DNA of 64,000 nucleotides from Bilabrum cf. latius. Lineage: Eukaryota. This document shows, one piece after another, positions 3-62,133 of this stretch. The notes under the pieces are model-generated. The model saw nothing but the letters and a program-made list of their open reading frames with translations, made no database searches and was not told the origin of the DNA. The position numbers and the translations under genes were made by a program. Position 1 is the stretch's first letter. Every line of letters starts with the position of its first letter. Where the stretch lies: NCBI GenBank assembly GCA_965178125.1, contig OZ237754.1:496001-560000 (forward strand), given 5' to 3'.

Positions 3-3000
3 AAGGTCAAGGGCAAGGCCAGCATGGTAGTCAACAGTACCAAGCAGCAGTCTACGATGAGAACCTCAGCTGAAACGGTTTGGGAACCGGAGGCGTCAAT
101 GACTGCACCCGTCATGTAGCGCAAGAAGCGCCCGGATGCTGTTCCGGCCTTAAGATCAGCAAACCCTCCCTCTACGGGGATAGGCATGTCATCAAGAATT
201 GCGAATCGCAAACGCGACGAAGAGCGCGGCGCTGGAACGTTGCCCACATTGCAGGGAATGCAAGAACCGAAGTTGAAGCCCAGGCATGCAGAGCAGTAGA
301 GAGCCACTCCAGCGAATGGAGGCTTGGGCTAGGCCTTCGACTCTAGCAGCAGCCGTCACGAGAGGAAGGCGGACCCGTCATCCAACCGCCGCAGGAACAC
401 TAAGCCTGATCGGCGTGGTACTCACGGCGGTGGTGGAAATCGTCGCAAGAACCGCGGAAGTTCCAACGGGCACGGTCGAAGTCGTGGCAGGGGCGGAGGG
501 CGGGGCCGTGGGTACGGGTCGAGAGCGAAATCAAGAAGACACGAGAGGCACTAGAGGCACGCGCTCTTTGACGAAGTGACTCGGAGTGCAGCGGCGAGCA
601 GCAGCTCGAGTCACATCGATGCTCCGCTTAAGTCTCCGCGTGCAGGGCGTAAGCACCAGCAGCAGGAGCAGCCGAAACACCATCGCGAGACAAAGGCCCA
701 GAGAGCCGATGTACTTGCGAGCGACGACTTATCAAGCCACCCGGACCACCAGCCAAGGGCGTCCACGTCACAAAGAGACAAAACGAGTTTCGACGGACAA
801 GTAAAGCAGTACAGTGCTATGTCAAAGCAGGATCGCGATGTTAGAAGTCCAGGTCGCACGTCGATGGGTTCTGCTAGGAGCTCTTAGGATGGGCAGCAGC
901 ATAAGGAGCGTCTTGGGTAGCAACCAATGTCAGCGCAACTCGCTGCCACATCCTTTCGGTTGGATGTGGCAACGCATGCGAGCCAGCGTAAGCCCGAGGC
1001 TCGGGCGCGGTCTCCAAGTGACAGCGATTTTGGAGTTGGATCGAACGAGGATGAGTTGCTTGGGCGCTAGTCCTCCCGGGCCGGGACCCTGATTCCTAGG
1101 CCGTCTGCGTCGGACCCCCCTTCCAATGCAAGAGCACGCGGAGCTTCAGAAGGCTTGCAGGGAAGCAATCGCCCGCGACCCTCAGCCTCCCAACCCTCCG
1201 TTTCGAACTCTCTCATGAATCTCAGTCAGAAGCCCGCATCGAGTATCGCGGCTGGCAAGCGCAGTAGCAGCATTGGTGGCGCCAGCAAGAGTTCTGGGCA
1301 GGTCCCGATGGGAGATGATGACGATGTTGATGCTCCTACAGCGACCATGCCCTCCACTAGGGTGAAGCAAGGCGCTGCTGGCGCGGAACGAGTTGCCTTG
1401 GGGAGCGTTCCAATGGACGGTGGACCAGTATCTGGGTCGGATGATGTGTATTCCTCGCCTGCTCGAAGACCTCAACGTGCCCGCAGACCAGCCTCGCAAG
1501 CGATTGCAGTGGAAGGTTCTAGTGAATCTGACGAGGACTTGCCAGATGTGGTCACATCTCCTTCTCGTGCTGCCAAGGGCAGGGCGGCAAGCCCGTCCCC
1601 ACCCAAGCTAGCTCACGGCAAGGGCAAGCGCAGCAATCAGAGTGCGAAAGCTGGCAAGGCCTCCCCTGGCAAGAGGAAGAAGAGAAACAGACCTACTGCC
1701 CGCGTCAATCCCTTGAAAGCAGAGCCTGTCGGCTGTCAGCACCCAGGTAAGCCCGCGCTGAAGAACCGCATGATGAAACGCACCTTCTACAAGGTCGACA
1801 GTGTCAGGCGCTTCATTCGCACCGCGGAGCACAGGCATCACGTGAATCTCACAGCTCTTGGAACAGATGCATGGGAGCAGAAGCAGTCGTTTGATCCTAC
1901 TGAAGCTATGGCCCAAGCCCACGCCGAGAAGATTGAGCCTGAACCTGAAAGCGAGGAGGATGACGCAGTGCCCGAGGCGCTTGACATCGTGAAAACGTTT
2001 GGGGCCATGACTGGATACGTCGACCCGCGAAGACTGCCAGGCGCATACGAGCGACGTACCCTCCCACTGGTGCTCGTGGATCGCATGATGCTGCCCGCAG
2101 AAGACCCCATGCATGTTTCTGTGGACGACGTTCTTTCTACGCTCGGGTCGGAGTTCAATCCATTTTCGCGGCAGTTTGTGTTTCTCCCGTTCCAGGATCA
2201 ATCGCATTTCTCCATGGCAATCATATGCAACGCCGCCATGGCGCTGCCATCGAAAAAGGAGGTGCAGAATGTCATCCGAAGGATCCGCAAACTTAAAGAC
2301 AAGCAGGGCGGCTCACAGGCCGTCAGTGCTTAGCAGACGTATGATATTTCTTCAAGCAGCGAGAGCAGCGGCGAGGTTGAGCCAATTGAGTCCCAGGCCC
2401 ACAGCAAGAAATAGAAGCGAACCGTAGATTCGGCCGGTGCATGGAGCCCTGATTAGGCTGGTCCTCTTCGACTGCAGAATCAGCTTCAAGCTGCACGGCA
2501 GCGGGCCCGAAGCTTGTGGGACGAGGTGCAGCCGCGCCTGGCGACCCGACTGCGGGAGGCTAACCCTGGAACAGCTGCTGCTGAGTTTATGAATCCATTC
2601 GAGTCTGCAAGCAAGGTACTGGGGCATCTGGTGCAGGAATTTAGTGCAAGCTACCTAATGGAAGTGAGCAGGAAGCGAATTCGTCCCTCGCATCTTCCTG
2701 AAGAGATGTCACGTGCCGTTGACTGTCTGATAGATTGCGCCGATGCATTCAAGTTTGATGACGACACCACAGAAAAATTGGTGAGGGGGATGAAGAATTT
2801 GGACGAATGTTGCGCACTGTTCACTGGGCCGCAAACATCCAAGTCACCCGACTCTAATGAGCCAAAGAAGTCGGCTGGTGAGGCTGGTGCTGAGAGCAGC
2901 CATGCCGCGGGAGGCAGTGCCAGCAGCAGCGCTAGCAGCAGTGCTAGAAGCAGTGCTAGCAAGCAGGTACGTTCAAAGCTTGTTCCGGAATCGATCGTAT

Positions 3001-5885
3001 TCGTCCACGGTGCTACTACTGAGGAACTTGAGGTCAGTCTCGTTCGCGCTTTGTCCCGTGAGGCGCTTGTGAAACTTTCTGCAAAGGCTCCTAGTGCACT
3101 CAAAGCCGCGGGCAGGCAGGCCGAGGGCGTTGTTGCAGCAGTGGAGTTGATTCTCAGTGGCGACACTGGAGATTCAGCAGCTGGGAGTGCAGGCATGCTG
3201 AGAGTGATGCACTCCTTCCTCGAGAAGACAGCAGACTACAGGCAGTCGATCCAGGTGGTGCATCAAATCCTGCTAGAGTATGCCAAGCGCTGCGACGTGC
3301 ATGCGCCCATCCCGAGGCACCCTCTTGAGTGCATCCGGTACGGCGTGTCGCCAGAGTTGGCTGGTTAGGCGAGCGGAGCCAACTCAATGGCCTCATCGGC
3401 AGCTTCTTCGAGCGCTGGACCAGCCGCTACAGGCCATGGTATTGAAATCTTAGGTCAACAACATTCGATAACTACAGACACTGCCGTGCTCAAGGCGTCT
3501 CTGCGGGAGGTTAGCAAGAGGCACGCTCATTGGCGCCTGAAGGGGCTCGCGGCTGCCGTGCAGGCACAGCACTAGCAGCATTTGACGAGAGCCAAAGCTG
3601 CTGGACGAGCTGCTTCCATGTTGTTTGCAATCCATGAGTACTCCAACGCAATGGCGACCTCCGGTGAGGACTTAAGCGGGCGGCTATCGTTTGCCAAATT
3701 GACTATAGATGAGCTGCTCTAGACTGCAGAGGAATCGTCCGAGAAGCTCAGACGGTGCATCATTGGCATGCATCGTCTGCTTCATGCCCAAAGACGACCA
3801 TAGGCTGAGTCCAGCTACAAGCTCATGTCGACTGCAGCTGAGGCCACAGAACCCGATGTAGTTACCCACTGGTCGCACGGTGCCGAACCGCCTCAGCAAT
3901 CAGGCGGGTCTCGGTCTAGGAGTCAAAGCCGTAGCCGTAGTCGGGGCGCTGGGGCTTCGCGCAATGATCTCGGCGTGGACTTCGACGGAGCAATTGGGTC
4001 CAAGCGTGCGAGAGCAGACCGCGCAGATCAAGATAGCCAACCGGAATCTATAGATGGCTCCGATGACGAAGCCAGCGTCTAGTCTGCGACCGAGCAGCAG
4101 CCTCGAGGGGGGCAGCAAGGACGGGGGGTCAGCAAGCGCCGGCGCAAGGAAGAACGCTCTGCATCCTCCTTGGCAAAGGAAAGTTCCACCAGTGTCGCGA
4201 GCTCGCAACCCGCACGTGGGTGTCACTCGGAACAGGAGATAACCTCTGCGATGTACAAGACGTCGTTCCGGCTCGTTGAAGCTTTGGCAAAGTTCGATCG
4301 CTTTGTGCTCTTCTTGCGCGAGCTGACAGGCAAGCTTGACGTTGCCTCCAATGTCAACCACGGGCTATACAAATGCTTGAAGCACGTGGCTGGTGTTACA
4401 CAAAAGAACGCAAAGACGTGTTTGAACCGGGAAAAGCGGAGCTACGACTTAGCCTCAAAGGTGATCCAGGGATCGCTGAGTAAGGAGTGCGTTGGTGGCT
4501 CTCCAGATGCTCCGGACGGTGCCGCCAGCACAGGTCGGAGGCAACGGAGGAGGCGCAGCAAATCCCGAGGACCATCAAGCGCAGCACCGTCTTCGTCTGG
4601 AGGCACGGCATCGTCAGCGTCAGAATCTGCTGCAGCAGCAAGCGGAACGAAGAGCACAGCAGATCCCGCCGCGATCGATGACGAGCGCCTGGCCCAGCTG
4701 ATAGCCAACAGCTCCTAGCTGCGGTACGAGTCAGACAGGGCGGTTGAGCCTCCGGCTCCGTGTATCATCTTGCTCGATTCCATCAAAGGTCACCACGACT
4801 ACAGAAAGTACGCCGTGTAGATTCGCAAGTACTGCTAGCTCATGTACGAACACACCTATGCCCCTGCAGAGTACACGCAGTACGCCGAGGAGGCACGAAA
4901 GCAGGGCCTCCCAGCCACTCATGACCTGGCGCCAAAGATGTTTTTGCAAGATCAGACCAGGTTCCATCACGTGCGTCTGCCCAATGCTCCCCAGCAACCC
5001 AACTCCTGCGACTGCGGCGTGTTCACTGTGTAGTTCTGCAGGCAGTGGATTCTGCGTGCGCTCGGCCCGCATATCACGGCTCGCGTGATTCAGGACAAGT
5101 TCAAGCATTCGATGTTCCTAGGAGCTGACATGTTCGATATCAGCACCATCCCGCAGCTGCGGCAGCAGCTGGCTAGGACCGCCACTGAGCTCGCCATGGA
5201 TAAAATGGAACGGGTGGACAAGGTGGAGGCTCGCAGGGTTGCCATCCTGGCAGAGATGAAGCGCGAGAAGGGTACAGGAGCAAGCTCCGAGGACGGAGGG
5301 ACTGGATCGAGTGGCCATGCCTCAGACCAAGAAGAAGGCGGGGCAAGCAGTAGCACCGATGTTGATGCCGACGACGACGATGGGGACAGTAGCAGCCCGG
5401 ACTCGGAGTCTGACAATGCTTCTGATGGAGGCCTAGGCATTGAAGACAATGAGTCAGGGAGTGATCCAGAAAACGTGAGTCGCAACGCACAGCTGGAATC
5501 CAACTCAGATGGCGCTAGCCGCGTACCATCCAGGCAGGCTCTAGGGCTGTCCTCAAGCCAGAGAGGTCCGAGCCGTGACATGCAGAGTCCAAGGCAAACT
5601 GATCGTGTTGGGGAGGCGCGGCGGGTTAATGAATCGAAGAATGATGGCCTATTGGACTGCGACGACGAGGAGGAAGACGATGAGGGGAACGGCGATGTCA
5701 ATGATGAAAACGACCTTGCCGAGACGGCGACTGAGGGGGCGAAGAGCATACATTCTCGAATGTTCACACAAATGACTGCGAAGGCGGGTGCAAGTGACGC
5801 CTCTGGTGACGTGGTACGGTAGCCCAGAGGTCAGGATGGAGTGAAAGACGGAGCTTGGAGGCTCGGATAGGGCGGTGAGGCGTAA
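3..5885 (+). CDS. Ulp2/SENP6-7-like SUMO protease (peptidase C48); 5' end at or beyond the window edge, ~1960 codons, TAG=Gln
   Basis: ORF-track fragments starting at 576, 1155, 2514, 3387, 3825, 4170, 4842 and 5085 share one frame and are separated only by TAG (~21 in total). The first TAA/TGA is TAA at 5883-5885. C48 motifs: FVFLPFQDQSHFSMAIICN (His), PCIILLDS (Asp), PQQPNSCDCGVF (Gln/Cys). Confidence 0.85.
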
Positions 5886-6025
5886 GCCTGAGCCGCTTAG
5901 TTTAATGGACGTGGAATCGATACCCCCGGGGTTTTGACTTGAAATGAAAGACACAATTTTGGATAGTGCTAGTCTAACCCCGAGTTCACTGAAGAGACGG
6001 CATCGGTTTCTGATCGGTTTACTGC

Positions 6026-9000
6026 TTAATCCATAAGATCGCTAGAGGCAAAATCGCCTCCCTCGGTCGGCGGCACGCTTGGGTCATCTGTCAGGTCGAC
6101 CGCACTTGCACTGCCTCTGATGGCGCCCTCTATGAGATCATCATCTCCATCATCTGTTGCGTCCACAACCGCAGAGCTAGCTTGCGCTGAAACTGTGAGA
6201 GTGTTATACACGTCCACGAAGACGTCCATCACGCTGCCGCTGCGAAATTGCCTCGATCTGCTGTTTCCCGTGCTGCCAGCACTGCTTGCTTGGCTGCTGT
6301 TTCCAATACCGCGAGCGAGTCCTGCAGGCACCGACCCCACCACTGGTACGACAGGGCTCCCCGGACCAATACTAGTGGAGGGTCCGCCGCGAAAGCTAAA
6401 CTAGTTGCTGCCGCGCTGCCCGACAGCGGGGTCGCCACCTAGACCCTTGCCTCCGGCATCAGGCACAGCACCACTTCCCTCCACTGGAGCAGAGACGATC
6501 CTACCGAGGTGCATGCGATCCAGCTGCCCGACACCGTGGCCTTCAGCCCCATCAACTTCTGCCGCACCGGCAGCCTCCTCAACGGTACCCTGCCGTGCAT
6601 TACTGCCCCCATCGATCGCACCTGCTGGCACGACCTGCTGCACGGATCGAAACTGTGCGTCTCCGCTGAGAGCGCCTCCAGCAGTGGCCGTCCTGCGCCT
6701 GCTAAAAGACACGCGCCTAGCTCCACGCCTCCCATGCCGCAGCTCAGCGAGCCGACGACGCCGACGTAGCGCGTCCAGAGTATCGACGTGCCTGCCCATG
6801 TCTACTCCGCCAAAAAACGAGCCTATTCCTGGCACCATGCCAACCATGCTGCCAGTTCCGTACTCTCGTCCAAATCGCTGGCTCCACCCAGCTCGCAGGA
6901 GGCTGCCGCGCCGTGGTTCCGTCTGCTGGCCTGGGCCACCCCGATGGCTGGACCCGGCGACTGCAGTCGCCCTTCGCTCATAGTGCTCGGGTTCTAACCC
7001 AGGAGCAGAGGCGCCGATCCGTGCGTTCTGCATGGATGAAGATTGCTCGATGTGACCAACAGTGTGGCCCCGGTCGCGCCTGTCAAGCCTCTCGCTAGCA
7101 ACGCGAGAGTGTATGGGAGCCTTGTTGCCAGCCTATTCACTCCCATCGGCGCCATCCTATTCGTTCGCCTAGGCTAGATCACCAGCACCGGTGCTGCTTC
7201 GAGCTGACAAGCGACCAGTCCAAGTTCCACCGCCTTGCTCCTCATCACCACGGTCAGCTCCGTACAGTCCACTGCGGGCGTGCTGCTGCAGAGAGGCGCT
7301 CGGATGGATCGAGCTCATCTCGATGTCAGACGTCAGTTTCCGCATCCCACTCGCATCACCATCTTCAGCATTGCCCACCCCTGTGGGAGTTGCGACCGGA
7401 GACGGCGAAAATACCACGGCAGAGGCGTTCTGCCACTCCTGCACGCGGTGCCCGCTGCCTTGCTTCTGCTTGCAAGTCGGCGACAGCCCCCGCGCTGGAT
7501 TCCGTACCACCGTCGGGCTGGACGCTTCCTCATCGGCATCCTTCGATTCCCCCCCTTGCTTGCTTCCAGAGCCACGAAGGCTATCGACCCCGTGTCCAGC
7601 ACCCTGCTGCTACTCGTGCAGCTTCTCGAGCTCTTTCAGCTTCGCTTCGTGAGCCTGCTGGGCCTGTTTCTGCCTGCCGCTTAGGATGTACACACCGCAC
7701 AGCACCAGCGCAATACCGATCGGAAAGCACGCCCACGACACGGTGCTGAAAGAATCGAACTCTCGGTAGTACACCCCGCCCGCGATGATGGACGCAAACA
7801 TGAACGTGCTCGAAAATACAGGCACGATCAGCAGCGTGTCAAAAAGCTAAAGCCCTTTCGCCAAGAAGTGCTGCTGCAGCATCATGCATACGACCAGCGC
7901 CACAATCTGGACGTATGTGAGCAGGAAACGAAACTGGTTGTCTCCCGCGAACGTGACTTTCAGCAGCTCCGACACAGCCTTTGCGAACAGCACCGACTGC
8001 CCGCCCACCGTGCCACTCATGACACCGTAGAACACCGGGTGCATCCTAGAGTAGTACATGTATTCCTCCGGGGGAGATTCGAGCGCCTCTGCAACGATAT
8101 CAGTGGCGCTGGCGTGCCGCATCCTGTCGAGCTGTTCTGCAGCGGAGCTGGCCCCTGAGGCGCGGCCTGTAGAAGACCTGGACGACCTGGAGCCCTTCGT
8201 GAGCTGGCTCCAGTTGCGTCTCATGCCTGGCGGTGGGACAACAGATTCGGAATCGGAACTTGACATACTACCGTGGACATCGGCTCTATCAGCTGCGTCG
8301 GTTCTCTTGCCGTCGCTTGGCACGCCGTGCGCGTTGAATTCTGAACCATCCGTGCTGCTGCTGCCGGATTCGGAACCATGATCAGAATCATCTCCCCGCC
8401 CCTTGTTCCCGGGCTGCGGTCTCGGCGGCTTCAGCGCACTGCTTGCAACATGATCAATATTGTTTCGCTGGTCTGGTTCCCTCGTCGTGATCTGCTGCTG
8501 CATTTGCACTCGTCGCCTGCGACTGTCCTAAAGGCCTGCTTTCGACGGTGCGCCGTCAGTCCCTGCCGAGCCCGGTCTCGATCTCGAGACCGGCTCGCTA
8601 GCTGGCGGGACTGCAACCCTAATACCATCAGAGCTACTGCCGCCCGTCTTTGAGACCTTCGCAGATCTGCTCAAAGCCTTCACGATGCTGCTAGCGGGGT
8701 CTTCCCCGCCACTTCCGGGACGTCGCGCGGAAATGTCCCCGCTGCCTGCCGCAGCATCCCTGCTGCTCCCCTGCTCAATCCCATCCATCCTGGCGTCTAT
8801 ATCCGTTTCTTGCTGCAGCACAGCCGCCTGTGCCGCGCTCGCGTGCTCCTCCAGTGCCTCGATCATGGCCCTGGCCAGGATCGCCTCTGCACGACTGATG
8901 AACAGGTAGAGACCGCCCAGCATGGACAGCACGAGCGAGGCGTAAATAATCATTTCCAGTCGGGCCCACAGCTCGATAAGCTCTTGGATTGTGTATGAGG

Positions 9001-9819
9001 TCTCCTCGTGGCTGCCGAAGACGACTGCGATCACCGCGCCCGCAATCACGAGTGCAGTGCCAGCGTAGTCCTGCCACTGCAAGCTCTGACCCAGAAACAT
9101 GGTGGCAAATATAACATTTGCCACGAGTGTAGTTGATCCTACTGGAGCCACCAGGGTCTGCGGAGCCAGCCCGAAGGAGACAAAGTCACCTATCGCGCCC
9201 AAGATAACCAACGAGAGACCAACCCACCACTTGGGCTATTGTGTGTAAGGAAGCCGGGCATCGATAGCCTGCGCTTGGAGCATGATCTCAAGTTAATATG
9301 CACGAGCATGTGCGCATCTGGTGCGACAAATGTCATGCCTTTGGAAGATATTGCTCGTCCCGCATTGCCGCACGAGATTGCGGGGAAGCCCTCGGTGGCC
9401 CTGTGAAGCAGATCACGGGGCACTTTCCCAGCATGAGCGAAGGTAATTATTCCATGAATATGCTATGGTTAGCCATACTTTGCAAATATGCTGTCTCAAA
9501 GCTGAAAATCGTGCAGCAAGCCACCGGTGTACAGCCGCCAACTTCAATGCCCAAAACCGTAGTATTCAAAAAATCAACGTCCTCACTTTCTGGGCTTCTA
9601 GAAGGAATGAATACTTCTATGTGTTCACACCGAAGTTAGCAACGGAAGAGCTCAGCGCACGTACTCCAACACCCTGCGAAGAGCAAAATTCATGGGTGAC
9701 GAAGCAGTGGCGATCAATCACAATTCAGCAACCATCATGATTGGCTCAAGCGGCAAAGCAGGTAAAGACCGCGCAAGAAACTATTGTAAAGAACGCACAG
9801 CGAACGGCTACCATGACAT
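6026..9819 (-). CDS. NIPA: NIPA-family magnesium transporter with a long internal loop and C-terminal tail; probable exons 9819-9799, 9673-9587, 9268-6026
   Basis: Motifs NFGVNT[TAG]KYS, PKWWVGLSLVILGAIGDFVSFGLAPQTLVAPVGSTTLVAN, LAKGL[TAG]LFDTLLIVPVF and IIAGGVYYREF. Introns 9798-9674 (GTGCGT..CAG) and 9586-9269 (GTGAGG..CAG), both phase 0. Ends in TAA at 6028-6026. The first exon is tentative. Confidence 0.85.
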
Positions 9820-9956: not shown

Positions 9957-10629
9957 ATGGTGAGCATTCAACTATGTATGTGCGTATGATCAATGAAATC
10001 TCTTTGGGTCTGCCTGGTCTACGACGAGCGATAATCTATTGGTGGAAACATTCCAACTGCGCACACAGGCGTACCACTCTGCATACAACGAAGAAAAGGA
10101 AGGAGTCGCAGAGGTGGGAGGCTGCCTAGTTATGCCCCTTAAGAAGCCTGCTGCCAAAGGTCCGGCTCCTGTTGTGAAGAAGGCAGAGTTTGCATGGCGC
10201 ACAGCGGACGGGGTTGATTTCCCAGATCTAGTTGACGAGGCCATCTACTACTTCAGACCGAACGTGCTATTTAAGAAGTTTACAATCGATGGTCCAGCGG
10301 ATCGCGTCCTGGTTTACTGCATTCTGTTTATTTCCATGTGCCTGGAGAAGATCGCCAAGTGCAAGACTGCTGAGGCTGCTGTGAAGGAGCTAGAAGGACT
10401 GAAAGGATCAAAGTTTGCGATTGCCGGGGAGCCTGGCTGGGTTCTTGGCACAATGTTTCCGAAGCCAGATGCTGGATCTGCCGGCGACACCCGGCGGTAC
10501 TTGAAGCAGCTGCGCGAGACGATCATCAAGAGGCTGGTCCCTGTCGTATTCCTGGACGACACGACTCCGAACAAGTTCTGGATGGCGTTTGCGAAGAAGT
10601 CTTTCATGAAGATAAAGCTGACCGCCTGA
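9957..10629 (+). CDS. ARPC3: Arp2/3 complex subunit 3 (p21-Arc); short first exon, then an intron ending at 10068
   Basis: AYHS at the N-terminus, DLVDEAIYYFRPNVLFKKFTIDGPADRVLVY, YLKQLRE and PNKFWMAFAKKSFM. Stop is TGA. The start could be ATG|GTGAGC at 9957 or ATG TAT|GTGCGT at 9974. No in-frame TAG. Confidence 0.93.
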
Positions 10630-12550: not shown

Positions 12551-13480
12551 ATGGCAGCTGTATCCGATGCCCCCGCGCCTGCGCCTGCTGCTTCTGCAGA
12601 TTCTACTGATGGTGCCAAGAAGCAGAGAAATTGGTGAGAAACGATGCACAGCGCATACGTACAAATGTAGCGATCTAGTTTGGCTCTTTTCCGGTGCACT
12701 TGGTGAATCAAGCAAAGGATCCCTATGCTTGCACGACGAGGCTATATTTACATGAATTACGCACCCACCCAACACGGCAGGATCCCATTGGAGTCGAATC
12801 CGGATGTCTTGAACAAGTACCTTGAAAAGCTAGGCTTCCCAACTGCTCTGTACAAGCTGCACGACGTGCTCGGCCTGGAAGATTGGGCATTCGATATGGT
12901 CCCGTCTCCAGTGAAAGGTGTGGTGTTCCTGTACCCCATCACGGAGGAGCAGGAGAAGGCAAGGGCTGACGAGGCCAAGAAGATCGAGGCGGACGGGCAG
13001 GAAGTGTCCGAGTCCCTGTACTACACGAAGCAGTCCGTGCCGAACGCATGCGGAACTGTTGCCCTGACTCACATTGCAGCGAACATCGCGAAGCAGACCG
13101 GCGGGGACGTCGAGCTGGCGAAGGATTCGTGGTTTGCGACGTTCCTGGACACGACCAAGGACAAGTCGGCCGACGAGCGAGCCGAGCTCATGGACGTGGG
13201 CGACTTTGCAGAGACGCTGGAGGAGGCGCATCAGTCCAGTGCCGCTGAGGGACAGACAGCGCCCCCGGAGAGGCAGGTGGCCACTCATTTTATCGCATTC
13301 GTCATCAAGGATGGCAACCTGTACGAGATGGACGGCCGTAAGAAGTCTCCCGTGAACCACGGCAAGTCCACCGAGAAGACGCTCCTGGCAGATGCCGCCA
13401 AGGTCATGAAGGATTTCATGAAGCGCAACCCGGACTCGCTCGATTTCACCTTCATGGCGCTCGGCCCCAACAACGAGTGA
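12551..13480 (+). CDS. UCHL3: Ubiquitin C-terminal hydrolase (peptidase C12, UCH-L3-like); intron 12634-12780
   Basis: Splicing GTGAGA..CAG restores the W(TG|G)IPLESNP motif. Also KQSVPNACGTVAL, HFIAFV and LYEMDGRK. Stop is TGA. No in-frame TAG. Confidence 0.93.
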
Positions 13481-16600: not shown

Positions 16601-18763
16601 GCCAGACGTGAGCAAGGCTGCGGGATCCAGCTCACCGGCAAGCGCGTCTCCCGACCCAGGGACGACAACGACAGTTGCCCCAAACTCAGAGGAGGGAATC
16701 TTCTTGCTGGGCATGTACATGCACGTCGATAGCTGCTGCGCCCCCTGCGCGTCTCCTTTGCCGTGCTCCTGCCAGTGCCCGTCCGAAGCCACTGGCACGA
16801 GGCACAGCCCGTGCTCCGACTCGATCTTGCCGCGCAGCAGCCAGCGAAGGTTCGCTAAGACTTCACTGCGGTGGTCTGCAGGCTGGCTTGACCAGTATGA
16901 TCCCGGCAGCGGAGGCCGCTCCGTCGCCATTTCACCGCGTGCTGTTGCTGCTGCGTGCTCCGACGATCTGGCCACTTCTTGCGCAGCAGCTTGCTTACCA
17001 ACCTTAGATCGCGGGCTGTGGCTCCTCAATGGGGGCGAGGAATCTCTCATTGCAGAGCGAGTCGGCTGACGGGAGCTGCTGGGTGGCCGGTGCAGCAGCG
17101 GGTCGCTAGTCTCCTCCTCCTGCTCTTCCCCAGCTGCCTGGTGCTCCCCGGCCCTGACCACCACCCTCGGCTGCGAGAAAGTGACCCTGGCCTTGGCCCC
17201 CACAGGGGGTCCTCGCCTTGGCCCCACGCTCGGCGACGCGCCGTGGTCCCAGGGGGCCCTCCAATGGTGCATCGCATGGTCGTGCACTCCGCCCCCACCG
17301 CCCCGTGCCGTGCCCTCGCCGTCTCCCGAGTGGACACCCCCAGCGCCTGGCCGGCCGTCTGCAGCGGGGGGCACCCAGAATCGTAGGATGCCGTCGGGAC
17401 ACATCTCGTAGCCCAGACCATTCAGCCGTCGATCAGCAGCGGATAGGTCAACGCGGGGGAGGTCAGCCTGCAGCTGACGGGACCCAGCGCCTCCGGTTGA
17501 GGCGCTCCGAGCGCGGGATCGAGACCGGGTTGAGGAGCCCGAAGCAGCCGACTTTGGGCTCACGGGGCTTTCCCCACGATTCGTCACAGATGTGACGAGT
17601 GCGTCGAACGAGGCTCCGATGGACTCCCCCCTGGACCGCCGTGCTTGTTTCGGGGAGTGGGAGGGGTCCACGACTTCTTGGGACGGGCTGCGGCCGGCAT
17701 CTCCGCCCTCTCTGGCCTCTGGGTCCTCGTCTTCGCCCTCGCCCATGTCACTCATCGGCGGCTCTGGGTCATCCCCGGGAAGGGCCTACCGGGCTCCGCC
17801 TTGTTCCGGTTTTGAGACGCCCTGCTCGGCCGCCGACGCGGCCGCAGCAGCAAGGCAGGCGAGGAGTGTCTGAGCAAGAAGCGGGCCGATATATGCGGTT
17901 GTGTTCTGGCCCTGCACAGCACCGTCTGCTCGCATCCTGCCGCTCGCCAGGTACTCTGCTACTTCTTCCGGCCTGAGGTCCAGGGGCCTGAGCGGCTCTG
18001 CTGCTGCTGCTGCTGTGTGTTGCCATTGCATTTGTTCCCCCGCGGCTGGGGGCGTGAATTGACTCGAACTGTTGGTACTACTGGTATTATTGCTGGAGGG
18101 AAAGAGCCACCATAGGATAGGCAGCCATAGAGCAGCGACGCTTACTGCAGCGATGGCACTGCTAAACGCAGAGATCCGATCGGATGCCTCCCTCCATGGG
18201 CCACGAACACGGGACAACCGGCGACTCCTTGGAGACTATGGAATTTGTTGTGATTTTTCTTTCGGTCCTGCTGCCTAGAGTGGCACAAACCCCAGCGACT
18301 CTGCCTTGATTCCAAGCAAGGCGAGCATCGGCACCGCTCGAACGGTTGCAATCACGAGAATCCAAGCGAAGGAAACAAGCGATAACACGGCCGGAGGAGA
18401 CGCAAGAACCAAGCTTGATCCAGAAAACTGCGGCTGTGCCACAGCGATACCGTACGAGAGGACCATAGAAACACCAGCGCCAACAACACCCATTGGGACT
18501 ACAATCCAGCCCGGCTCTGCAGAGGGAGTAGCTGCGGGAGTCTGCCCGCCCCAGAGCTAAACAACACTTCCATTTAGTAAGACTCCATGCCACCACATCG
18601 TGGCCGCCACTCCAGCAAATGCAAGCGACAAACTGGCGAAGAGCAACAACTCAGCTATTTCGCCTGCGGCTGGGACGAACCAAGAGACCAACCATACTCC
18701 AGCAGCAGCCACAGAAATCCTCTAATAATCATTCATTGGTTTCAAGTCATCAGATCCAGACAT
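13673..18763 (-). CDS. ~1696-aa protein: N-terminal multi-pass TM region plus a divergent Arb2/FAM172-like alpha/beta-hydrolase fold split by low-complexity inserts
   Basis: Eight or more ORF fragments lie in one frame, joined only by TAG (including TAG TAG TAG at 15607-15599). Ends in TGA at 13675-13673. Segments LGYEMCPDGILR, VVVVPGSGDALAG...GSVLPLLKEL...IVLTNPN and HLLAAW...VVFVCQDDGALAVLDL resemble FAM172A/Arb2 blocks. Confidence 0.6.
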
Positions 18764-18858
18764 GGTAACGATTATTTGAGAGAATTTAGGCTGCGCCGCT
18801 GCGGTTGACCTTTGAAACCGGAACCACCAATTTCGAAAATCCGAAATCGGGCCCACCC

Positions 18859-19572
18859 GCGCGTTACTTTGGTGGCAGTCCTCGGATTGTCTCTGGTATT
18901 GAATTGCGTGCGAAAACTCTATTTTCTCTCTCTCTCTCCCGCTCGGACACATACTGAATCCCTCCGAGAACTAGTTCATCGGAGAGTGGATGACAGGAAC
19001 GCTGGGCCGTTGCGCCCTCAGCAAGGAGCTTCAGGTGCTAGAACGCATCTGGGCGAAGGGAACGGCAAGGCTAGCACGCTCCCGGATCTGGAGCAGGCAA
19101 CAAGTCCTAGAGGCGGACTATGTGGCGGTCTGGTGGCGAGAGGCTGAACGCCTCACGCCTCGCCAGGCCTTCCTCGCGCATGCTCCCTCACTGCGGACGT
19201 TCGACTGGGTCTGACTCCCAGGAGATCTCAACGCGATGCGCTTAGGACACGGGTCCTAGGCATGTATCGGTCTTAACCAGACCAACTATTTCTTCAGAGG
19301 CCTTTTCAGGTCCTGACTGGCTCCGCCAACGCGGGTACAGCTGGGTCCCCTGTTAAGGTGCGCGTTACTTTGGTGGCAGTCCTCGGATTGTCTCTGGTAT
19401 TGAATTGCGTGCGAAAACTCTATTTTCTCTCTCTCTCTCTCGGGCATTCTAGTCGTCGCGGGTACAGCTGGGTCCCCTGTTAAGGTGCGCGTTACTTTGG
19501 TGGCAGTCCTCGGATTGTCTCTGGTATTGAATTGCGTGCGAAAACTCTATTTTCTCTCTCTCTCTCTCTCTC
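18859..19572 (+). mobile_element. Three head-to-tail, 5'-truncated copies of a retroelement 3' end with (TC)n tails (non-LTR or Penelope-like)
   Basis: The identical core gcgcgttactttggtggcag...gaaaactctatttt followed by (TC)7, (TC)8 or (TC)10 ends at 18938, 19441 and 19572. Copies 2 and 3 share ~30 bp more on the 5' side. Copy 2 is preceded by an ORF remnant ending in TGA at 19214. Confidence 0.6.
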
Positions 19573-19927
19573 GTCCCGCAACTGTAACGCAAACAACAAC
19601 CCAATCTTCCGTAGGAATGAAACACAATACGGACACAGTGGGTGTTTGGAACAGAAGAACTTGAGAGTTGTTCTGTGATGATAATACTTACTTTGTTCCT
19701 CTGTTTTTAGGTAAGAGTGGCACGAGTGGTCCGGCGTGCTCGGCTCGGATCAATGTTGCGTGCACTTGCAGGCGCTAGAATGCCGTATAACTGGAAGTGA
19801 TGAGCAGTGTCAGTGGGGTGTGCCCAGGCTGCGGACGCAAGTAGGATGCGTGTATACCTACAACCCACTATGCTACGCACTGCAGACCGCTGGCTTCCGC
19901 CCCGCAAGCCTTTCAGTCTCGACCCTC

Positions 19928-21132
19928 TCACTCCCTGATGCCCCCCTCGAGCTGGGCGAGCGCCACCGCCATCACCGTCCACATCCTGTTTTCGGCTTCC
20001 TGCCACACGATGGAGCGGTCTCCGTAGAACACCTCGTCGCTGACTTCTTCCGATTTGCGCGGCAGGCAATGCATGAACTTCCAGTCCGGCTTCGCTCCCC
20101 TGCCGAGCTCTTCCGTTACCTGAAAACCAGAAAAGTCACGCAACCTCTCCGCCTTCTCTTCTTCCTGGCCCATGGAAACCCACGTATCCGTAACGATCAC
20201 ATCAGCCTCCTTCACGGCCTCCTCCGGGTCGTTGCAGAAGAATGGAACCGGGCTGCCTGTCTCTTTGGCCACGTCGATGCTCCTCTGCACTACGCCCGGG
20301 TCGCAATCGTACTTGCCCCCCGCTGGGACAGCGACCCTCACCTCCACGCCCAGCCTGGGCATGCCTGCCAGGATGGAGTGAGTGATGTTGTTGCCGTCAC
20401 CCACCCAAGCGAGCCTCAGTCCCTTCAGGCCATCGCGGGGACTCCCGGCAGAGCCATCCTCGGGGGGAGGACAGTACGTCTCCTGCAGAGTCTGCAGGTC
20501 CGCGAGGATCTGCAGCGGGTGATACCTGTCGCTGAGCGCGTTGATGACTGGCACCGGGGAGTGCTCGGTCAGCTGCTCGATCACCTCGTGGCCGTACACC
20601 CGGGCGAGAATCACGTCGTTGAAGCGGCCTAGAACGCGTGCAGTGTCCTGCAATGATTCATTGGTCCCAAGCTAAATGTCCTCAGAACCGAGGAAAAGAG
20701 CGTGGCCACCGAGCCGAGCAATCCCTGTCTCGGTTGAAACTCGAGTCCGCGTACTCCGCTTCTAGAAGATCATTGACATAGTCTTTCCTATCTGAGAGGC
20801 AAATCATATTTAATAGCATCTAGAAATGCATGCGTCACAAGTATTTATATGGAAATTCAGGGAGAAATTTTTGGTTTTCTTACCAGTGGCTGGTATACCT
20901 GGCCTTGCAGCCGGATTCTATGCTTCAGAGCGTGCGATATGTCCAGCAACGCATGGATTTCTTCCGTAGAGAATTCAAACAAATTGTTGAGATGCTTGCC
21001 TTTTATCGATGATGCATCGATAGGCCGTTGGGAGGCAGCGCTCAAAGCAAATCCGCGCATTGAACGAGTTCTGGACGCGCCCAATGCAGTCTGGCGGGAT
21101 GTGCGGAGAGCCACACGAGTGCAAGAATGCAT
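19928..21132 (-). CDS. OTC: Ornithine carbamoyltransferase with a probable mitochondrial transit peptide; intron 20883-20792
   Basis: IF[TAG]KRSTRTR (carbamoyl-phosphate site), EDI[TAG]LGTNESLQDTARVL, HPLQILAD, DTWVSMG, FMHCLPR and AENR. The GTAAGA..CAG intron is phase 0. Stop is TGA. Confidence 0.95.
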
Positions 21133-36155: not shown

Positions 36156-39100
36156 TCAAGAATCCATCCGTTCCTCCGCCTTTGTAATGGCCACGCAGAA
36201 CTAGCGGACCACCTCCAGCAGCGGCGCAGTCTCGATGTCCTCCGCGGTCCTGCCCTTCTTGCCCCCACCCCCACCTCCACCTCCACCTCCACCGCCAACC
36301 CCAGCCACAGCCCCAGCGCCGGATGCAGCGCCCCCACCAGTACCTGAAGAGGTTCCTTCCCGAAGCAGTGCATCAATCGGCAGCGCAAAGTGCCGCCTCA
36401 GCCTCTCTGCCTGTCGCAGGCACCTCCTCCTCGCCTCCTTCACTTCACCCACGAGCGCAGACAACCTGGCCTCTGCCGCAGCGAGTGCGACCACCATCCT
36501 GAGATCACGCCGCTCTGCCGGACCCGCCGGTTCTAAAGCAAACGGTGCCGCCTTCTTTTCAGATGCTGGTTGTGCCAATGATCCACCTCCGGATCCTCTG
36601 GGTTCTACCTGCCCGTGCTTCCACTTGCTCGAGCTATCTGATCCCTTCGGCTCCACTTTCTTCTTCGCTGCCTTCTTTCTCTTTCTCTTCAATGCTTTCT
36701 TCTTGCCCTTGGTCTGGATCGCTGCAAGAAGCGCGAAGCGGCCTCCACCAGCACCCTTGCTCGCCGGCTCGGCTGCGTCCACGCCATCGGTAGTGTCTTG
36801 GGATGGTTTCACCGCTTCCTGCTCGGGGGGCTTGGCACGAGATCCGCATGCCTCGGAGCTCGGTTCCACGGCGACGTCTGTTTCCGTGCTTGCAGAAGCC
36901 ACGGCCTCCCTAGCTCCCCTTGCCTCTTCTGCATCTCGCTGAGTGGCAAGTTTCTCAGCCTTCACGAGCTTGAGCCAGCCATCTAGCCGCTGCAACCGCT
37001 TGTTGCAGTCTGCCAGAGCTGTGTGCGCAGCTGCATGTAATGAAGGCAGCTCGCGTGATAGCATGGATTTGATGCTTGCCGTAGCGGACACGTCAGTGCC
37101 AGAACTCGAAGCAGCCGCAGCGCCACCTGTCCCTGTCCCTGTCCCTGTCCCTGCTTTCGTGCCATCGGCTGCCTCTCCAGCCGGACTTGCGGGTGGTGTC
37201 TTTGGCTTGGCCGCTTCACTTCCGATCCCCGCTTTACGGACAGTTTTGGGCTTATTGGGCGGAGCTGGTGGCAGGGCTGCGTCAGACTAGGACGCCCTCA
37301 GGCTGAAGCCCGGCGTGCTGGGTGCTTGGGGCTGTGCGGCACTCGAAGCATCCGCTGGTGCAACGGCAGGCGTACTGCTGGCTGCTGCGCTACTGCTTGA
37401 TACTGGTACCACGGGGGTGCTTGCTTTGATCCTCTCGTGTATCTCTGCCTTTCCATGGGACGGCCCGCCGCCGCTCTAAATCTGTTTCCGAAGACCTGCC
37501 ACGAGAATGTCAGCCGCGGTCGTCTTGCCATCGTACGCCTTGAGAAACGCGAGTCGGTCTAGCGATGCCAGCGAGAACCCCCTGGCGTTGCCTTTGTTCG
37601 GCAATCCTCGATTCAGGAAGTTCCCGAAGGCCAAGGCGAGGAGCAGAAGATCGTGGAACGTCGAGCTGTCCACGAGCTCGCCAAGCGCGCACCGGACCGT
37701 CCCCAGGCACTCCATCGCCTCCGCAGCCGCGGAACTCGCTTCCATGGAGGCCTCCCAGCACCGCACTTTCTGGTCAAAGCGCCGAATGCACGCCATTTTG
37801 CGAAGGTACGCCTCCGTGCTGGAGAGCCTGCCGGCATCCCTGTCGCTCACCTTCACGAGAGCCGCGGCCTCCTCGGGCTTCGGCCTCAGCGCAAAGAGCG
37901 CCAGAGCGGCTGACTGGCACTCGGCACGAGTCCTCAGACCCAGCACGCCCGGATCAATGCTCGAGAGACAGTCGGCCAGCTGGTCGAATCCGATGGCCCG
38001 ATATCGTTTGAGAGCGATAGAGGCGTTCTGCACCCGGCGCCCGTCTAGCACAGCCAATGGGCCAGCAGGCGTACCGCTGCCTTGGCCACCTGAGGAGGCA
38101 GCACCACCGGACGTACCACCGCTCTTCTTGCCGCGCCCTTTCTTCTTCTTCTTCTTGGGCTTTGCCCTGGCTGTGAACAGCTCGGCCATGGGGCCGATAG
38201 TCTCGGCGCACCCCTCCACCAGCTCCTGGGCCCGCTTGACCGACACAGACGCCTCCCAGAAACTGATGTCATCCGTTTCCCACGCGCTGCCAGTGCGCTT
38301 TAATCCACCCAGGCGGAAACTGCTGCCGCCGCTCGGCGACTGGTACAGCGGACTGCCGAGAACCGACCCGTGCACAGCAACAGGGGCGCCCAGACCTGGC
38401 CTGCGCAGTTCTCCAGCCGTACCAGCAGAGTCATCGGTTGACCGCTCCCGCATGAGCAGCCCAGCTCCCTCCCCTGCCCCTGCCGCCAGTTCCCAGTGCA
38501 GCCGTTTTCGAGCCACACTTGGAATGACCTTCCGACCCACATCGTCGTCCGACACACAACCTCGTTCTCCGCTCCCTGGCTCTGGCAGCGCCACCACATG
38601 CTGTTTCGGGATGAGCTTGGAGGTTGCAGCGATTGCCGTTGCTCCTGCCGTGCGAGCAAGCGATGATCTGCCCCGAACTGCAAGCGCCCTCCGTGCGCGC
38701 CCCCTGTGGCCCCTTGCGATGGCCCCTCCCCCTCCCCGTCCCCTTCCCTTTCCGTTGGACCGGCCGGAGCTTGGGCCCAGGCCCAAGTCAGCAAGCTGTG
38801 CCTTGGAGAACACAAACACGAAGAGGTGACCCGCCGCATCGTTCCGCATTTTTGATGCGACCACGTGTGGGGGCAGACCGACCTTCAGGGACTTTTTGTG
38901 CTTCTCTACTGCGAGGCGATCTGCCTCCGTGAGATCCACAATGGGAGTGTCGTCTGTGCGGATGGCGGCGCGGTGGTCCGTCCTCGATGGTTGCTCAGGG
39001 GTGGTTTGACTACAGCACTGTTCAGCAAGCAGCGCGGGGTCCAGCCCCTCCCCGCGCATCTTGTGATGCACCGCTCCCTCGGGCACACCGCGCTGCAGCA

Positions 39101-44040: not shown

Positions 44041-47000
44041 ATGTCGTCTGACGCTGGCAGGCCAAAGACCGCGTACTAGCTGTTCGTATCAGATTTCTTC
44101 AGGAAGCACCGCGAAGGGACCTTGCCCGGAGAATGGCAACCTGAAAGCTCAGACCAAGTTGGCGACGATGGCGGGGGATCAGGTGCTCTTGGTGGCGGTA
44201 AAATGATGGCGCACACATCAAAACTTTGGAAGTAGGTTCTCTCCGATTCTGACAAGCGGCCGTACGAGGACGATGCAGCCAAGCTACTTAAAGCCCACGA
44301 GCAGGAAGAAGCCCGACGGGACGCCGAAAGACTTGCGGAGCTGGAGCGCAGGCGGACAGAGAGAGAAGAAGCACCGGAGGATCGCTCGGCTCGCGGCGCC
44401 AGGGCCATCATGGACGCCGAGCGCCTCGCCGAAGAAGAGAGGCTTGCTGAGAGAGAGGCGAGGCGGAAGGAAATTGAAAGCTCCCTATCGCCAGCTGAGC
44501 GACGGGCAAGAGAGGCGTGAGCTCAATATACTCAACTCCGGTGTCCCGGACGTTGGCATCACGATTCCTGTCGGACCCGACTTCGGTCGAGCACTTGCTT
44601 CGCGGAAATGAGTCTGCTACGAATTCACCAGCGCAGGCCCTTAATTGCAATTTTCTCGATATTTCTCCCCCCACTCGCCGCAGCAAGCGCGCCAAGCGCA
44701 AGGCATCCGTGGAGAAGGCCCGCGCCGCCCGTCGCAAGACCGAGAAAGAGCTCGACAGGCAGCTGGATCGCCTACGGAAGAAGCAGGCAACCGCACAGAA
44801 GAGGAGAGTCAAGTACCTCCTTGGCCTCAGTGACATCTTTAGGCATTTCATGGACGGTGATGAGGCGCCGGGCAGCAGCCCATCCTCGCCCCCATCATCC
44901 TCGTCCTCGTCCTCATCGGCTGCAGCCGCCGAGGCAGGCCAGCCCGCCGCCATCTCAAGCCCGCCTGGCAGCCCAGCCAGGGGCGGCGCTTCTGGTGAGC
45001 CTCGCGGCTTGCAGTCTCCGTCTCGGCGCTTGCAGCGTAGCCAAAGCATGGACGAGACGCAGCGGCAGGCGCAGGAGGAAGAGGAGAGGCATCTGGCCGG
45101 CGAAGACGAGGATGAGGCAGAGGACGCTTCTGGCGCTTCTGGCGCATCTGACGGCGATGAGGGTGAGGACGAAGAGGGCAGCGATGAAGACGAGGACGAG
45201 GAGGAGGAGGAGGAGGAGGAGGACGAAGCCGTTGCCTCAAGCATCAAGTCAAAGGGCAAGAGCAAGAGCAAGGGAAAGTCAACGCGCCGTGCCAGCACCT
45301 CAGGCGCAGTAGTTGCCCCCACGACGAGGCTGACCAGGCAGCCAAGCGTGATCGAGTTCGGAACCATGCGCGACTACCAGATCGAGGGCTTGAATTGGAT
45401 GATCGGGCTGCAGGACACCGGTCTCAACGGCATCCTGGCCGACGAGATGGGACTGGGCAAGACACTGCAGACGATCAGCCTCCTGGGCTACAACCTCGAG
45501 TACCGCAAGGTGAGGGGCCCACACCTTGTGCTCGTCCCCAAGTCAACGCTGGCCAACTGGTGCAACGAGTTCAAGCGCTGGTGTCCGTCACTGAGAGCCC
45601 TTCGCTTCCACGGGACCAAGGAGGAGAGGCAGGAGATCATGGACACCAGGCTGCTGCCAGGGCAGCTGGAGGAAGACAGGGACTGGGACGTCTGCGTGAC
45701 CACCTACGAGATGGCCATCATAGAGAGGGGCTGCCTGGGCCGATTTCCTTGGCAGTACCTCGTCATCGACGAGGCCCACCGCCTGAAGAACGAGAGCTCC
45801 ACTCTAGCGAGGGTCGTCCGCAATTTCGCCGTGGCGCACCGGCTGCTGCTCACGGGCACGCCTTTGCAGAACAACCTGCACGAGCTCTGGGCGCTGCTCA
45901 ATTTCCTGCTGCCTGACGTGTTTGGCGATTCCGACGCGTTTGACAGCTGGTTCGACGTGAACAGCGGGGACGAAGACGCGAAGAAGAACATGATCACGCA
46001 GCTGCACCGCATCCTCCGGCCCTTTATGCTCAGGAGGGTCAAGAAGGAGGTGGCCAAGTCGCTGCCGCCCAAGAAGGAGACTTTCCTCTACGTCGGCCTG
46101 TCAGAGACCCAGAGGGGCGTCTACAGGAACGTTCTCAAGAGGGACCTGGGCGCCATCCGAAGCGTGGGTGGCGACGCCGAGATGGCGGCGTCGGGCGACA
46201 AGACCAGGCTGCTCAACATCGTCATGCAGCTGAGGAAGTGCTGCAACCACCCGTACCTGTTCGAGGGAGTAGAGGACCGCACGCTGCCTGCCCTTGGGGA
46301 GCACCTGGTCGAGTCCTCGGCTAAGCTGCAGCTGCTGGACAAGCTGCTGCCGAGGCTCCGCCAGGACGGGCACAGGGTGCTCATCTTCTCCCAGATGACG
46401 AGGATGATGGACATCTTGGAGGACTACTGCGTGATGCGCGGGTATCAGTACTGCCGCCTGGACGGGCAGAGCTCGTACGAGCACAGGGAGCAGGCCATCG
46501 ACGCGTACAACGCGCCTGGAAGCGACAAGTTCATCTTCATGCTGTCCACAAGGGCGGGCGGGCTGGGCATCAACCTCGCCACGGCCGACACGGTGATCCT
46601 CTTTGACAGCGATTGGAACCCCCAGGTCGATCTGCAGGCCCAGGACCGAGCCCACAGGATCGGGTAGACCAAGCCGGTTATCGTCTACCGGTTGATCACG
46701 GCCGACACCATCGAGGAGCGCGTGGTGGAGAGAGCCATGGTGAAGCTGAAGCTCGACGCCGTGGTGGTGCAGCAGGGTCGGCTGGCAGACAAGCAGAAGG
46801 CCATGAGCAAAGAGGAAATGCTTTCCATGATCCGGTTCGGTGCCGATGCCGTGTTCCGGCAGACTGGCAAGCAGACCGCGCTGACCGGGTCGGATCTCGA
46901 TGCCATCCTGGCCCGCGGCGAGGAGAGGACGAGGGAGATCACGGGCAAGCTGGAGGAGGCCGCGAAGGAGGCCGCAGGAGGAGAAGAATCCATGCTAGAT

Positions 47001-60764: not shown

Positions 60765-60923
60765 TACTGTTGCGTGCTGGGGTGGGGCGTCGTGCAATCG
60801 TAAGATTCAGTGTCTATGCAGGATACACAGAATCTATTCGGAGCCAGCTACTCTGGATCGGCAGCAAGCCGCAACGGCACACTCGCACAAATCCTCCAAC
60901 GCAAACATTGTAGACTGGTGGGC

Positions 60924-61253
60924 ATGCAAATTGGACCTATCTGTATTGGTGTGGCTCTTGTTGCTTGTATTGCACTGGGAGACGAGTCCTGCTCATTCGG
61001 GTGCGCGAACAGTTGCACCAACGGAGCATCTGCGCCGCGGTCATGCAAATGTCAGGACCCTTGGTACACCTGCAACGAAGAGCGCGGTGATTCAATAACC
61101 ATAGCAGGAATTACGTGCTACGAAGGAAAATGCGTTCCCAGCGGAGTGATGATTGCAAGCATCACAGTTGCGGTCCTGGTGGTGGTGGTCGGGGGTGTTG
61201 CGATTGCCTGGTACTTGTGCCGCAGCGGGTACTGCTCTGCAGGAAGAAAATAA
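60924..61253 (+). CDS. Small Cys-rich type I membrane protein (paralog 1)
   Basis: Signal peptide, 8-Cys ectodomain CSFGCANSC...CKCQDPWYTC...TCYEGKC and a TM helix. Stop is TAA. Confidence 0.75.
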   Translation: MQIGPICIGVALVACIALGDESCSFGCANSCTNGASAPRSCKCQDPWYTCNEERGDSITIAGITCYEGKCVPSGVMIASITVAVLVVVVGGVAIAWYLCRSGYCSAGRK

Positions 61254-61791: not shown

Positions 61792-62133
61792 ATGTACATT
61801 CAACGAGTATTTATTATCGCAGTGCTCCTAGCCTGCCTAGCGTACGTGAAAGGCGACGAAGAGAGATGCAAGACTGGATGCAGCTACAGCTGCTCGAACG
61901 GAGCTTCAGTACCGCCAGAGTGCGACTGTCAGAAACCATGGTACACATGCGACGCAGATGGTGGCGATTCTGTCACGATCGATGGGGTTACCTGCAGTGA
62001 GGGTAGGTGCGTGGCCAGCTGGGCACTGATAGGGACCAGCATTGCTGCCGCGATCATGTTCATCGTGGGCGCGCTGACGATCGTGTACTGCTTTTGTAGT
62101 ACATTATTCTGCTGCTGTTCCAAGGAAGCATAA
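61792..62133 (+). CDS. Small Cys-rich type I membrane protein (paralog 2)
   Basis: Same cysteine spacing (CKTGCSYSC...CDCQKPWYTC...TCSEGRC), TM helix and Cys-rich tail. Stop is TAA. Confidence 0.8.
   Translation: MYIQRVFIIAVLLACLAYVKGDEERCKTGCSYSCSNGASVPPECDCQKPWYTCDADGGDSVTIDGVTCSEGRCVASWALIGTSIAAAIMFIVGALTIVYCFCSTLFCCCSKEA

Follow-up and report, generated by a model that had tools for sequence, protein, structure and literature searches.

Near positions 5820-6028 of the 64,000-nucleotide stretch analyzed here (contig OZ237754.1, positions 496,001 to 560,000 of assembly GCA_965178125.1; hereafter the window, whose own numbering is used throughout), two convergent genes end in TAA, and one of them does so just after its frame has run through two TAG codons. 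The locus therefore raises the question of whether UAG has become a sense codon in this genome while UAA and UGA are still used as terminators. A first-pass annotation of the window had claimed that this is the case and that the UAR pair (UAA and UAG) is decoupled. The claim held when it was set against the in-frame codon counts, the residues at conserved positions, a scan that used TGA as the sole stop, the transcript ends, and the TAA ends of two paralogous genes. Thus, the code of the window is very probably that of NCBI table 15, in which UAG is an ordinary glutamine codon and UAA and UGA are kept as terminators, with a CUA-anticodon glutamine tRNA and a changed eRF1 as the presumed cause. 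The window is nuclear DNA with a G+C content of 60% and is poor in introns.

The gene on the plus strand of the locus (3..5885; its 5' end lies beyond the window) is a Ulp1/SUMO-protease-like gene of 1960 codons with 21 in-frame TAG codons and a TAA end. Its product is long and for the most part disordered, and contains a Ulp1 catalytic domain (Peptidase_C48, Pfam E 3.8e-08). The frame runs through TAG at 5820..5822 (residue 1940) and at 5868..5870 (residue 1956), 21 and 5 codons ahead of the end, as the first-pass annotation had it, and closes with TAA at 5883..5885, which is followed by GCC and TGA (5889-5891). The gene on the minus strand encodes a NIPA-type magnesium transporter (Mg_trans_NIPA, E 6.4e-35) and ends in TAA at 6026..6028. 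Its open reading frame (ORF) spans 9283..6026, and its last exon (6026..9267), which contains 8 in-frame TAG codons, lies downstream of an intron at 9268-9585 (contig joint 9267/9586). The coordinates first given for the two TAA ends (5883 on the plus strand and 6028-6026 on the minus strand) were exact, and table 15 translated the locus without internal stops.

To count stop codons in frame, we combined long ORFs with Pfam matches and RNA-like contigs into 22 gene models. These models comprise 18,221 codons and contain 138 TAG in frame, but neither TAA nor TGA. In the other two frames (+1 / +2) of the same DNA there were 133/145 TAG, 38/63 TAA and 293/357 TGA. The earlier observation that in-frame TAA was missing from more than 10,000 codons, in which CAA was common, is thus extended to the whole set of models, where CAA occurs 197 times, CAG 582 times and TTA, the rarest comparable A-ending codon, 37 times. 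If TAA were coupled to TAG, 47 in-frame TAA would be expected from the CAA:CAG ratio and 26-92 across five NNA/NNG codon pairs, so that the probability of finding none is at most 7e-12. These counts bear on the classical code in which both UAA and UAG are read as glutamine (NCBI table 6); in that case, TAA would be scarce simply as a result of the high G+C content. That change is by far the commonest of the stop-to-glutamine changes (PMC5304391, PMC11687900). For the window, however, it is extremely improbable, given the absence of TAA against such expectations, the presence of TTA and CAA in the same frames, and the four genes that have TAA at their ends.

The gain in open frame was specific to TAG. 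With all three stops in force, ORFs of at least 300 codons totaled 9,539 codons and the longest had 872. When TAG alone was freed, they totaled 29,038 codons and the longest had 3,115. There was no comparable gain when TAA or TGA was freed instead of TAG, and the long ORFs barely grew when TAA was freed besides TAG. The gene models themselves are bounded by TAA and TGA, and the zero count of TAA is therefore partly built in. We therefore ran the scan again with no stop other than TGA, as a control that is independent of TAA, and considered ORFs of at least 250 codons. The 17 gene-bearing ORFs (17,439 codons) contained no TAA from the start to the last sense codon; in-frame TAA was confined to the region upstream of the start ATG or to the terminal codon. 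In contrast, 67 off-frame or antisense ORFs (23,032 codons) carried 44 TAA, with at least one TAA in 33 of them.

TAG makes up about 15% of the glutamine codons in the models. The share varied among genes: in the 13 genes with at least 10 glutamine codons, it dropped as the G+C content at third codon positions rose (Spearman -0.59, P = 0.03). The strongly codon-biased ISWI gene has one TAG among 62 glutamine codons, and the ARPC3, UCH and Hydrolase_4 genes have none. This distribution suggests that TAG is a less favored glutamine codon.

The residue specified by TAG was read from three sites at conserved positions. The only TAG of the ISWI ATPase (46665..46667, plus strand) occupies the invariant glutamine of the SNF2 helicase motif DRAHRIG-Q, and the aligned residue was glutamine in all 120 homologues. 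In the ornithine carbamoyltransferase (OTC) gene, two TAG codons of one exon lie at conserved positions on the minus strand. At residue 6 of the exon (20762..20764; motif F-x-KRSTRTR), glutamine was found in 105 of 120 homologues (nine serine, three glutamate and three gaps), and at residue 36 (20672..20674; motif EDI-x-LG) in 113 of 120 (four histidine, one alanine and two gaps). Together, glutamine accounted for 338 of the 360 aligned homologue residues at these three sites, and no leucine, tyrosine or lysine was among them. The nearest full-length OTC homologue (P0125) has glutamine at both OTC sites, as does a relative from a metagenome contig (L001), whose OTC is 82% identical. These results support the conclusion that UAG is a glutamine codon in the genes of the window. 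A PDB search with the Ulp1 domain, aimed at three more TAG sites, gave no matches.

A further database entry for OTC (P0155) is a fragment of 158 residues that is 97% identical to the window protein and begins at an internal methionine downstream of both TAG sites. It may have been cut short because of these sites; gene callers that use the standard code truncate such genes at each TAG.

The transcripts were examined in contigs of three sequencing runs from two studies (X5, X6 and X7), which are listed only as presumed RNA and which we judged to be RNA-like from spliced joints and gene-bounded contigs. Three GT..AG introns (9268-9585 on the minus strand, 9959-10067 and 12633-12779) are absent from the contigs, which end at gene borders and vary in depth from gene to gene. 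Of the 46 in-frame TAG codons of the first six genes, 38 are covered by X5 contigs that match the window letter for letter. Because TAG is kept in these matching contigs, U-to-C editing and assembly error are excluded for those 38 codons.

We considered on this basis whether TAG could be a sense codon for another residue (leucine, serine, glutamate or tyrosine), could be edited from U to C, or could mark pseudogenes. Most of the 138 TAG codons lie in unconserved, low-complexity regions, where alignments do not reveal the residue, which leaves some room for such explanations. However, the preponderance of glutamine at the three conserved sites, without any leucine, tyrosine or lysine, argues against another residue, and the unchanged TAG in the RNA-like contigs argues against editing. 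Pseudogenes are disfavored by the transcription and splicing of these genes and by frames that stay open for up to 3,074 codons. We therefore regard all three forms of this alternative as hardly credible and retain glutamine as the reading of UAG.

We then turned to the codons at which genes end. Of 21 complete gene models, 17 end in TGA and four in TAA. One of these TGA codons, that of an HMG-box ORF (44041-44520), is probably intronic, because the frame of the neighboring ISWI ORF is open and homologous to its relatives upstream of its first ATG, and because ISWI proteins of stramenopiles have an HMG box at the N-terminus. The tally would then be approximately 16 TGA and four TAA. Accordingly, the HMG-box ORF and the ISWI ORF (44850-49283) probably form a single gene interrupted by an intron; most stramenopile homologues likewise have an HMG-box-SNF2 architecture. 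With either tally, UGA is the main stop codon (16-17 of 20-21 ends) and UAA a minor one, in agreement with the annotated pattern of TAA ends in Cys-rich paralogues and TGA ends in other genes.

The OTC gene ends in TGA (19928..19930, minus strand) at its conserved C-terminus: 113 of 120 homologues end no more than 5 residues away from it. Because of this agreement, UGA is shown to be a true terminator. For TAA, the best evidence came from the NIPA gene. The 3' untranslated region (UTR) of its transcript extends over 5981..6025 on the minus strand: RNA-like contigs begin at 5981 (X5) and at 5984 (X6, from the other study), and thus reach 45 nt and 42 nt past the TAA. In the same frame, TGA does not occur until 65 codons (195 nt) past the TAA. 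This places it outside the transcript as delimited in both studies, which indicates that translation of the NIPA gene terminates at TAA. On the other side of the locus, the 3' UTR of the SUMO-protease transcript extends from 5886 to 5962, where the X5 contig stops. The distance from the stop codon to the contig end was thus 45 and 77 nt for the two TAA genes, compared with 11-121 nt for neighboring TGA genes. The convergent transcripts end only about 18 nt apart (5962-5981), and the 3' UTRs in the first 20 kb of the window are short in general (11-121 nt).

Two further TAA ends belong to a pair of Cys-rich membrane protein genes on the plus strand, paralogue A (60816..61253; TAA at 61251..61253) and paralogue B (61792..62133; TAA at 62131..62133). 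The two proteins can be aligned across their Cys-rich domains and membrane helices, and each gene reaches its TAA after a short tail. Downstream of the TAA codons, no likeness between the paralogues was detected (local score 23). These genes are arranged in tandem, have atypical codon usage and encode small proteins that span the membrane once and match no Pfam family.

We asked whether the same data could be explained by TGA as the sole working stop, with TAA unassigned or avoided, so that ORFs ending in TAA would in fact run on to the next TGA, or their ends would be unreal. The scarcity of TAA ends (four of 20-21) and their position at unconserved C-termini would fit this explanation, as would the TGA two codons past the TAA of the SUMO protease. 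In contrast, the next TGA of the NIPA gene lies well past the transcript end, the likeness of the Cys-rich paralogues vanishes past TAA, and the distances from TAA to the transcript end resemble those of TGA genes. We therefore consider it very unlikely that TGA is the only stop, and retain UAA as a second terminator.

Several points nevertheless weigh against table 15. The first-pass annotation had offered the SUMO protease as an example of a TAA stop, but this gene is uninformative: with a TGA two codons later, its end cannot separate TAA as a stop from TAA as a sense codon, so that one of the four TAA ends proves nothing. Only these four TAA ends were found in 64 kb, and none is at a C-terminus conserved among homologues. 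The transcript ends were taken from assembled contigs and are hence approximate. The codon-usage score past TAA is weakly informative: for the NIPA gene it was 0.03 per codon after the TAA versus 0.23 before, which is consistent with non-coding sequence, and for the Cys-rich genes it was uninformative. As for the residue, the homologues in the glutamine tally were retrieved with TAG read as glutamine, which introduces a slight bias that is irrelevant for the invariant ISWI site. Further, two TAG sites in the HMG-box exon are at positions that are unconserved relative to ISWI homologues and are uninformative on the residue.

A second in-frame TGA or TAA within 5 codons past the gene end was present in seven of 21 genes, compared with 2.2 expected (binomial P = 0.004). 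The gene with an Agenet domain, for example, is followed by TGA-TAA-TGA at 55860. Such stops in tandem might serve as a safeguard where termination is leaky.

The two TAG codons shortly before the TAA of the SUMO protease also raise the question of whether UAG is read according to its position. In an ambiguous code of the type found in Condylostoma, karyorelicts and Blastocrithidia (NCBI tables 27, 28 and 31), TAG would specify glutamine inside genes and terminate near transcript ends; the SUMO protease, for example, would then truly end at TAG 5820 or 5868. These two codons lie in an unconserved acidic tail, which accords with such a code, and rare TAG ends could escape detection in so small a window. 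However, none of the 21 complete models requires TAG as its end, and TAG showed neither a deficit nor an excess close to gene ends. We observed one TAG (1.6 expected) in the final 10 codons, five (4.8 expected) in the final 30 (630 codons) and six (8.0 expected) in the final 50, although a comparison of 21 genes has little power. Further, the TGA end of OTC agrees with the homologue ends as described above, and the Pfam matches of ARPC3 and UCH reach the ends of their profiles 4 and 18 residues before TGA. We therefore judge an ambiguous code to be improbable, and dedicated termination at UAA and UGA, with UAG as an ordinary glutamine codon, to be the better account of the window.

A table 15 code could be explained by two changes. 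UAG would be read by a glutamine tRNA with the anticodon CUA, which pairs with UAG and not with UAA and which could be derived from tRNA-Gln(CUG) by one base change. A tRNA with the anticodon UUA would be absent. In addition, eRF1 would have lost or weakened its recognition of UAG, through a change in its N-domain, and kept that of UAA and UGA. The same argument was made for Iotanema and the rhizarian exLh (PMC5304391), with a T32G change in the GTS motif of the Iotanema eRF1 (PMC5304391), and for phyllopharyngean ciliates (PMC11687900). Scans of the 64-kb window for tRNA and Rfam families detected no tRNA and no other Rfam RNA, a tRNA scan of the L001 contig detected none, and eRF1 is not among the genes of the window. 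The longest record of the DNA run is 212 kb, and with genomic contigs of such length it should be feasible to retrieve the genes for the tRNA and for eRF1; at the time of their description, this could not be done for Iotanema or the rhizarian (PMC5304391).

The affinity of the organism was examined with the conserved genes. The best named matches of ISWI were oomycetes (65-66% identity) and ochrophytes, while three further sequences reached 70%. Those of OTC were Cafeteria (62%) and MAST-4 (60%). Further, ISWI is preceded by an HMG-box exon, as in most of the stramenopile matches, which carry PF00505. A quick single-gene tree of ISWI placed the group of the window as sister to oomycetes plus ochrophytes, and the joint clade, which excludes plants and opisthokonts, had an SH-aLRT support of 100 in this quick search. 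With moderate confidence, these sequence comparisons point to a stramenopile, possibly one outside the oomycete-ochrophyte clade. Amoeboaphelidium, for which a code with both UAA and UAG read as glutamine is reported, was also weighed as a source and was set aside in view of these stramenopile affinities.

The relative represented by L001 has four in-frame TAG codons in an ORF of 390 codons with a TGA end. Because L001 also has in-frame TAG, the trait extends beyond a single genome. The 763-residue protein of the window and its L001 counterpart were too divergent and of too low complexity for TAG-to-CAG changes to be read. The OTC gene of the window has a short GT..AG intron (20780-20860, minus strand) after the transit-peptide exon, and its exon structure and flanks are kept in L001.

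Two other regions of the window deserve mention. At 18677-20000, the summed contig depth of the DNA run X1 was approximately 340, compared with 20 elsewhere; contigs break there and the runs disagree in their letters. This points to a repeated element that separates the gene for a 1768-residue protein from OTC. Further, a formin gene (FH2 domain; 36156-40850, minus strand) contains four near-identical repeats that match the WASH-complex CCDC53 family, with long (Pro-Ala)n runs between them.

No nuclear code change has been reported for stramenopiles in the literature that we searched, which was covered at the abstract level and with most subscription journals outside its scope. The sequence data date from 2025, and the depositors may already have described the code. 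The code is thus of a known, rare kind and may be the first of its kind in its major group. More specifically, it is possible, though somewhat less than an even chance in our estimation, that the window represents the first non-standard nuclear code among stramenopiles, in a lineage that probably falls outside oomycetes plus ochrophytes. In this reading, UAG-only reassignment to glutamine would have an independent origin common to two or more lineages at the species level, those of the window and of L001, and, unlike in every known case, it would have arisen in a GC-rich genome with UGA as the main stop. If this is true, neither AT pressure that removes UAG nor UAA locked in as the preferred stop would apply as an argument for the reassignment. 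Codes that split UAG from UAA are few, and they are test cases for discrimination by eRF1 and for whether a CUA tRNA alone drives reassignment.

The first-pass annotation had described UAG-only reassignment to glutamine as rare, with the fornicate Iotanema as an example. The rarity stands, but the change is now reported from more lineages, namely Protocruzia and two lineages of phyllopharyngean ciliates (PMC11687900). The cases listed there are Iotanema spirale, the ciliate Protocruzia tuzeti, and the phyllopharyngeans Hartmannula sinica and Trochilia petrani. UAG alone has been reassigned to other residues in the rhizarian exLh and in phyllopharyngean metagenome-assembled genomes (MAGs) from TARA (leucine) and in Scotinosphaera (serine) (PMC11687900).

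The window shares with Iotanema, Protocruzia, Hartmannula and Trochilia the assignment of UAG to glutamine, the use of UAA and UGA as stops, and the same predicted combination of a CUA glutamine tRNA and a changed eRF1. However, its ISWI and OTC are nearest to stramenopiles, whereas Iotanema is a metamonad and the other cases are ciliates. As in the codes in which both UAA and UAG are read as glutamine (table 6; many ciliates, Hexamita, Streblomastix, ulvophyte algae and Amoeboaphelidium), glutamine has captured a stop that is one base from CAG, but in the window TAA is not a sense codon (0 of 18,221 codons). As in the rhizarian exLh, the TARA MAGs and Scotinosphaera, UAG is decoupled from UAA; in contrast to leucine in the rhizarian and serine in Scotinosphaera, the residue is glutamine, and the 360 aligned residues include no leucine and nine serine. 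The window resembles Condylostoma, karyorelicts and Blastocrithidia nonstop in having a standard stop codon inside genes, but unlike them it keeps two dedicated stops and shows no effect of position on TAG near gene ends. Finally, UAA is called the dominant stop codon of Iotanema (PMC5304391) and ends 86.9-98.3% of the genes of phyllopharyngeans with UAG-only glutamine codes (PMC11687900), whereas the window, with its G+C content of 60%, uses UGA at 16-17 of 20-21 gene ends and UAA at four. The present case thus breaks the pattern of UAA-dominated termination among codes in which UAG alone has been reassigned to glutamine.

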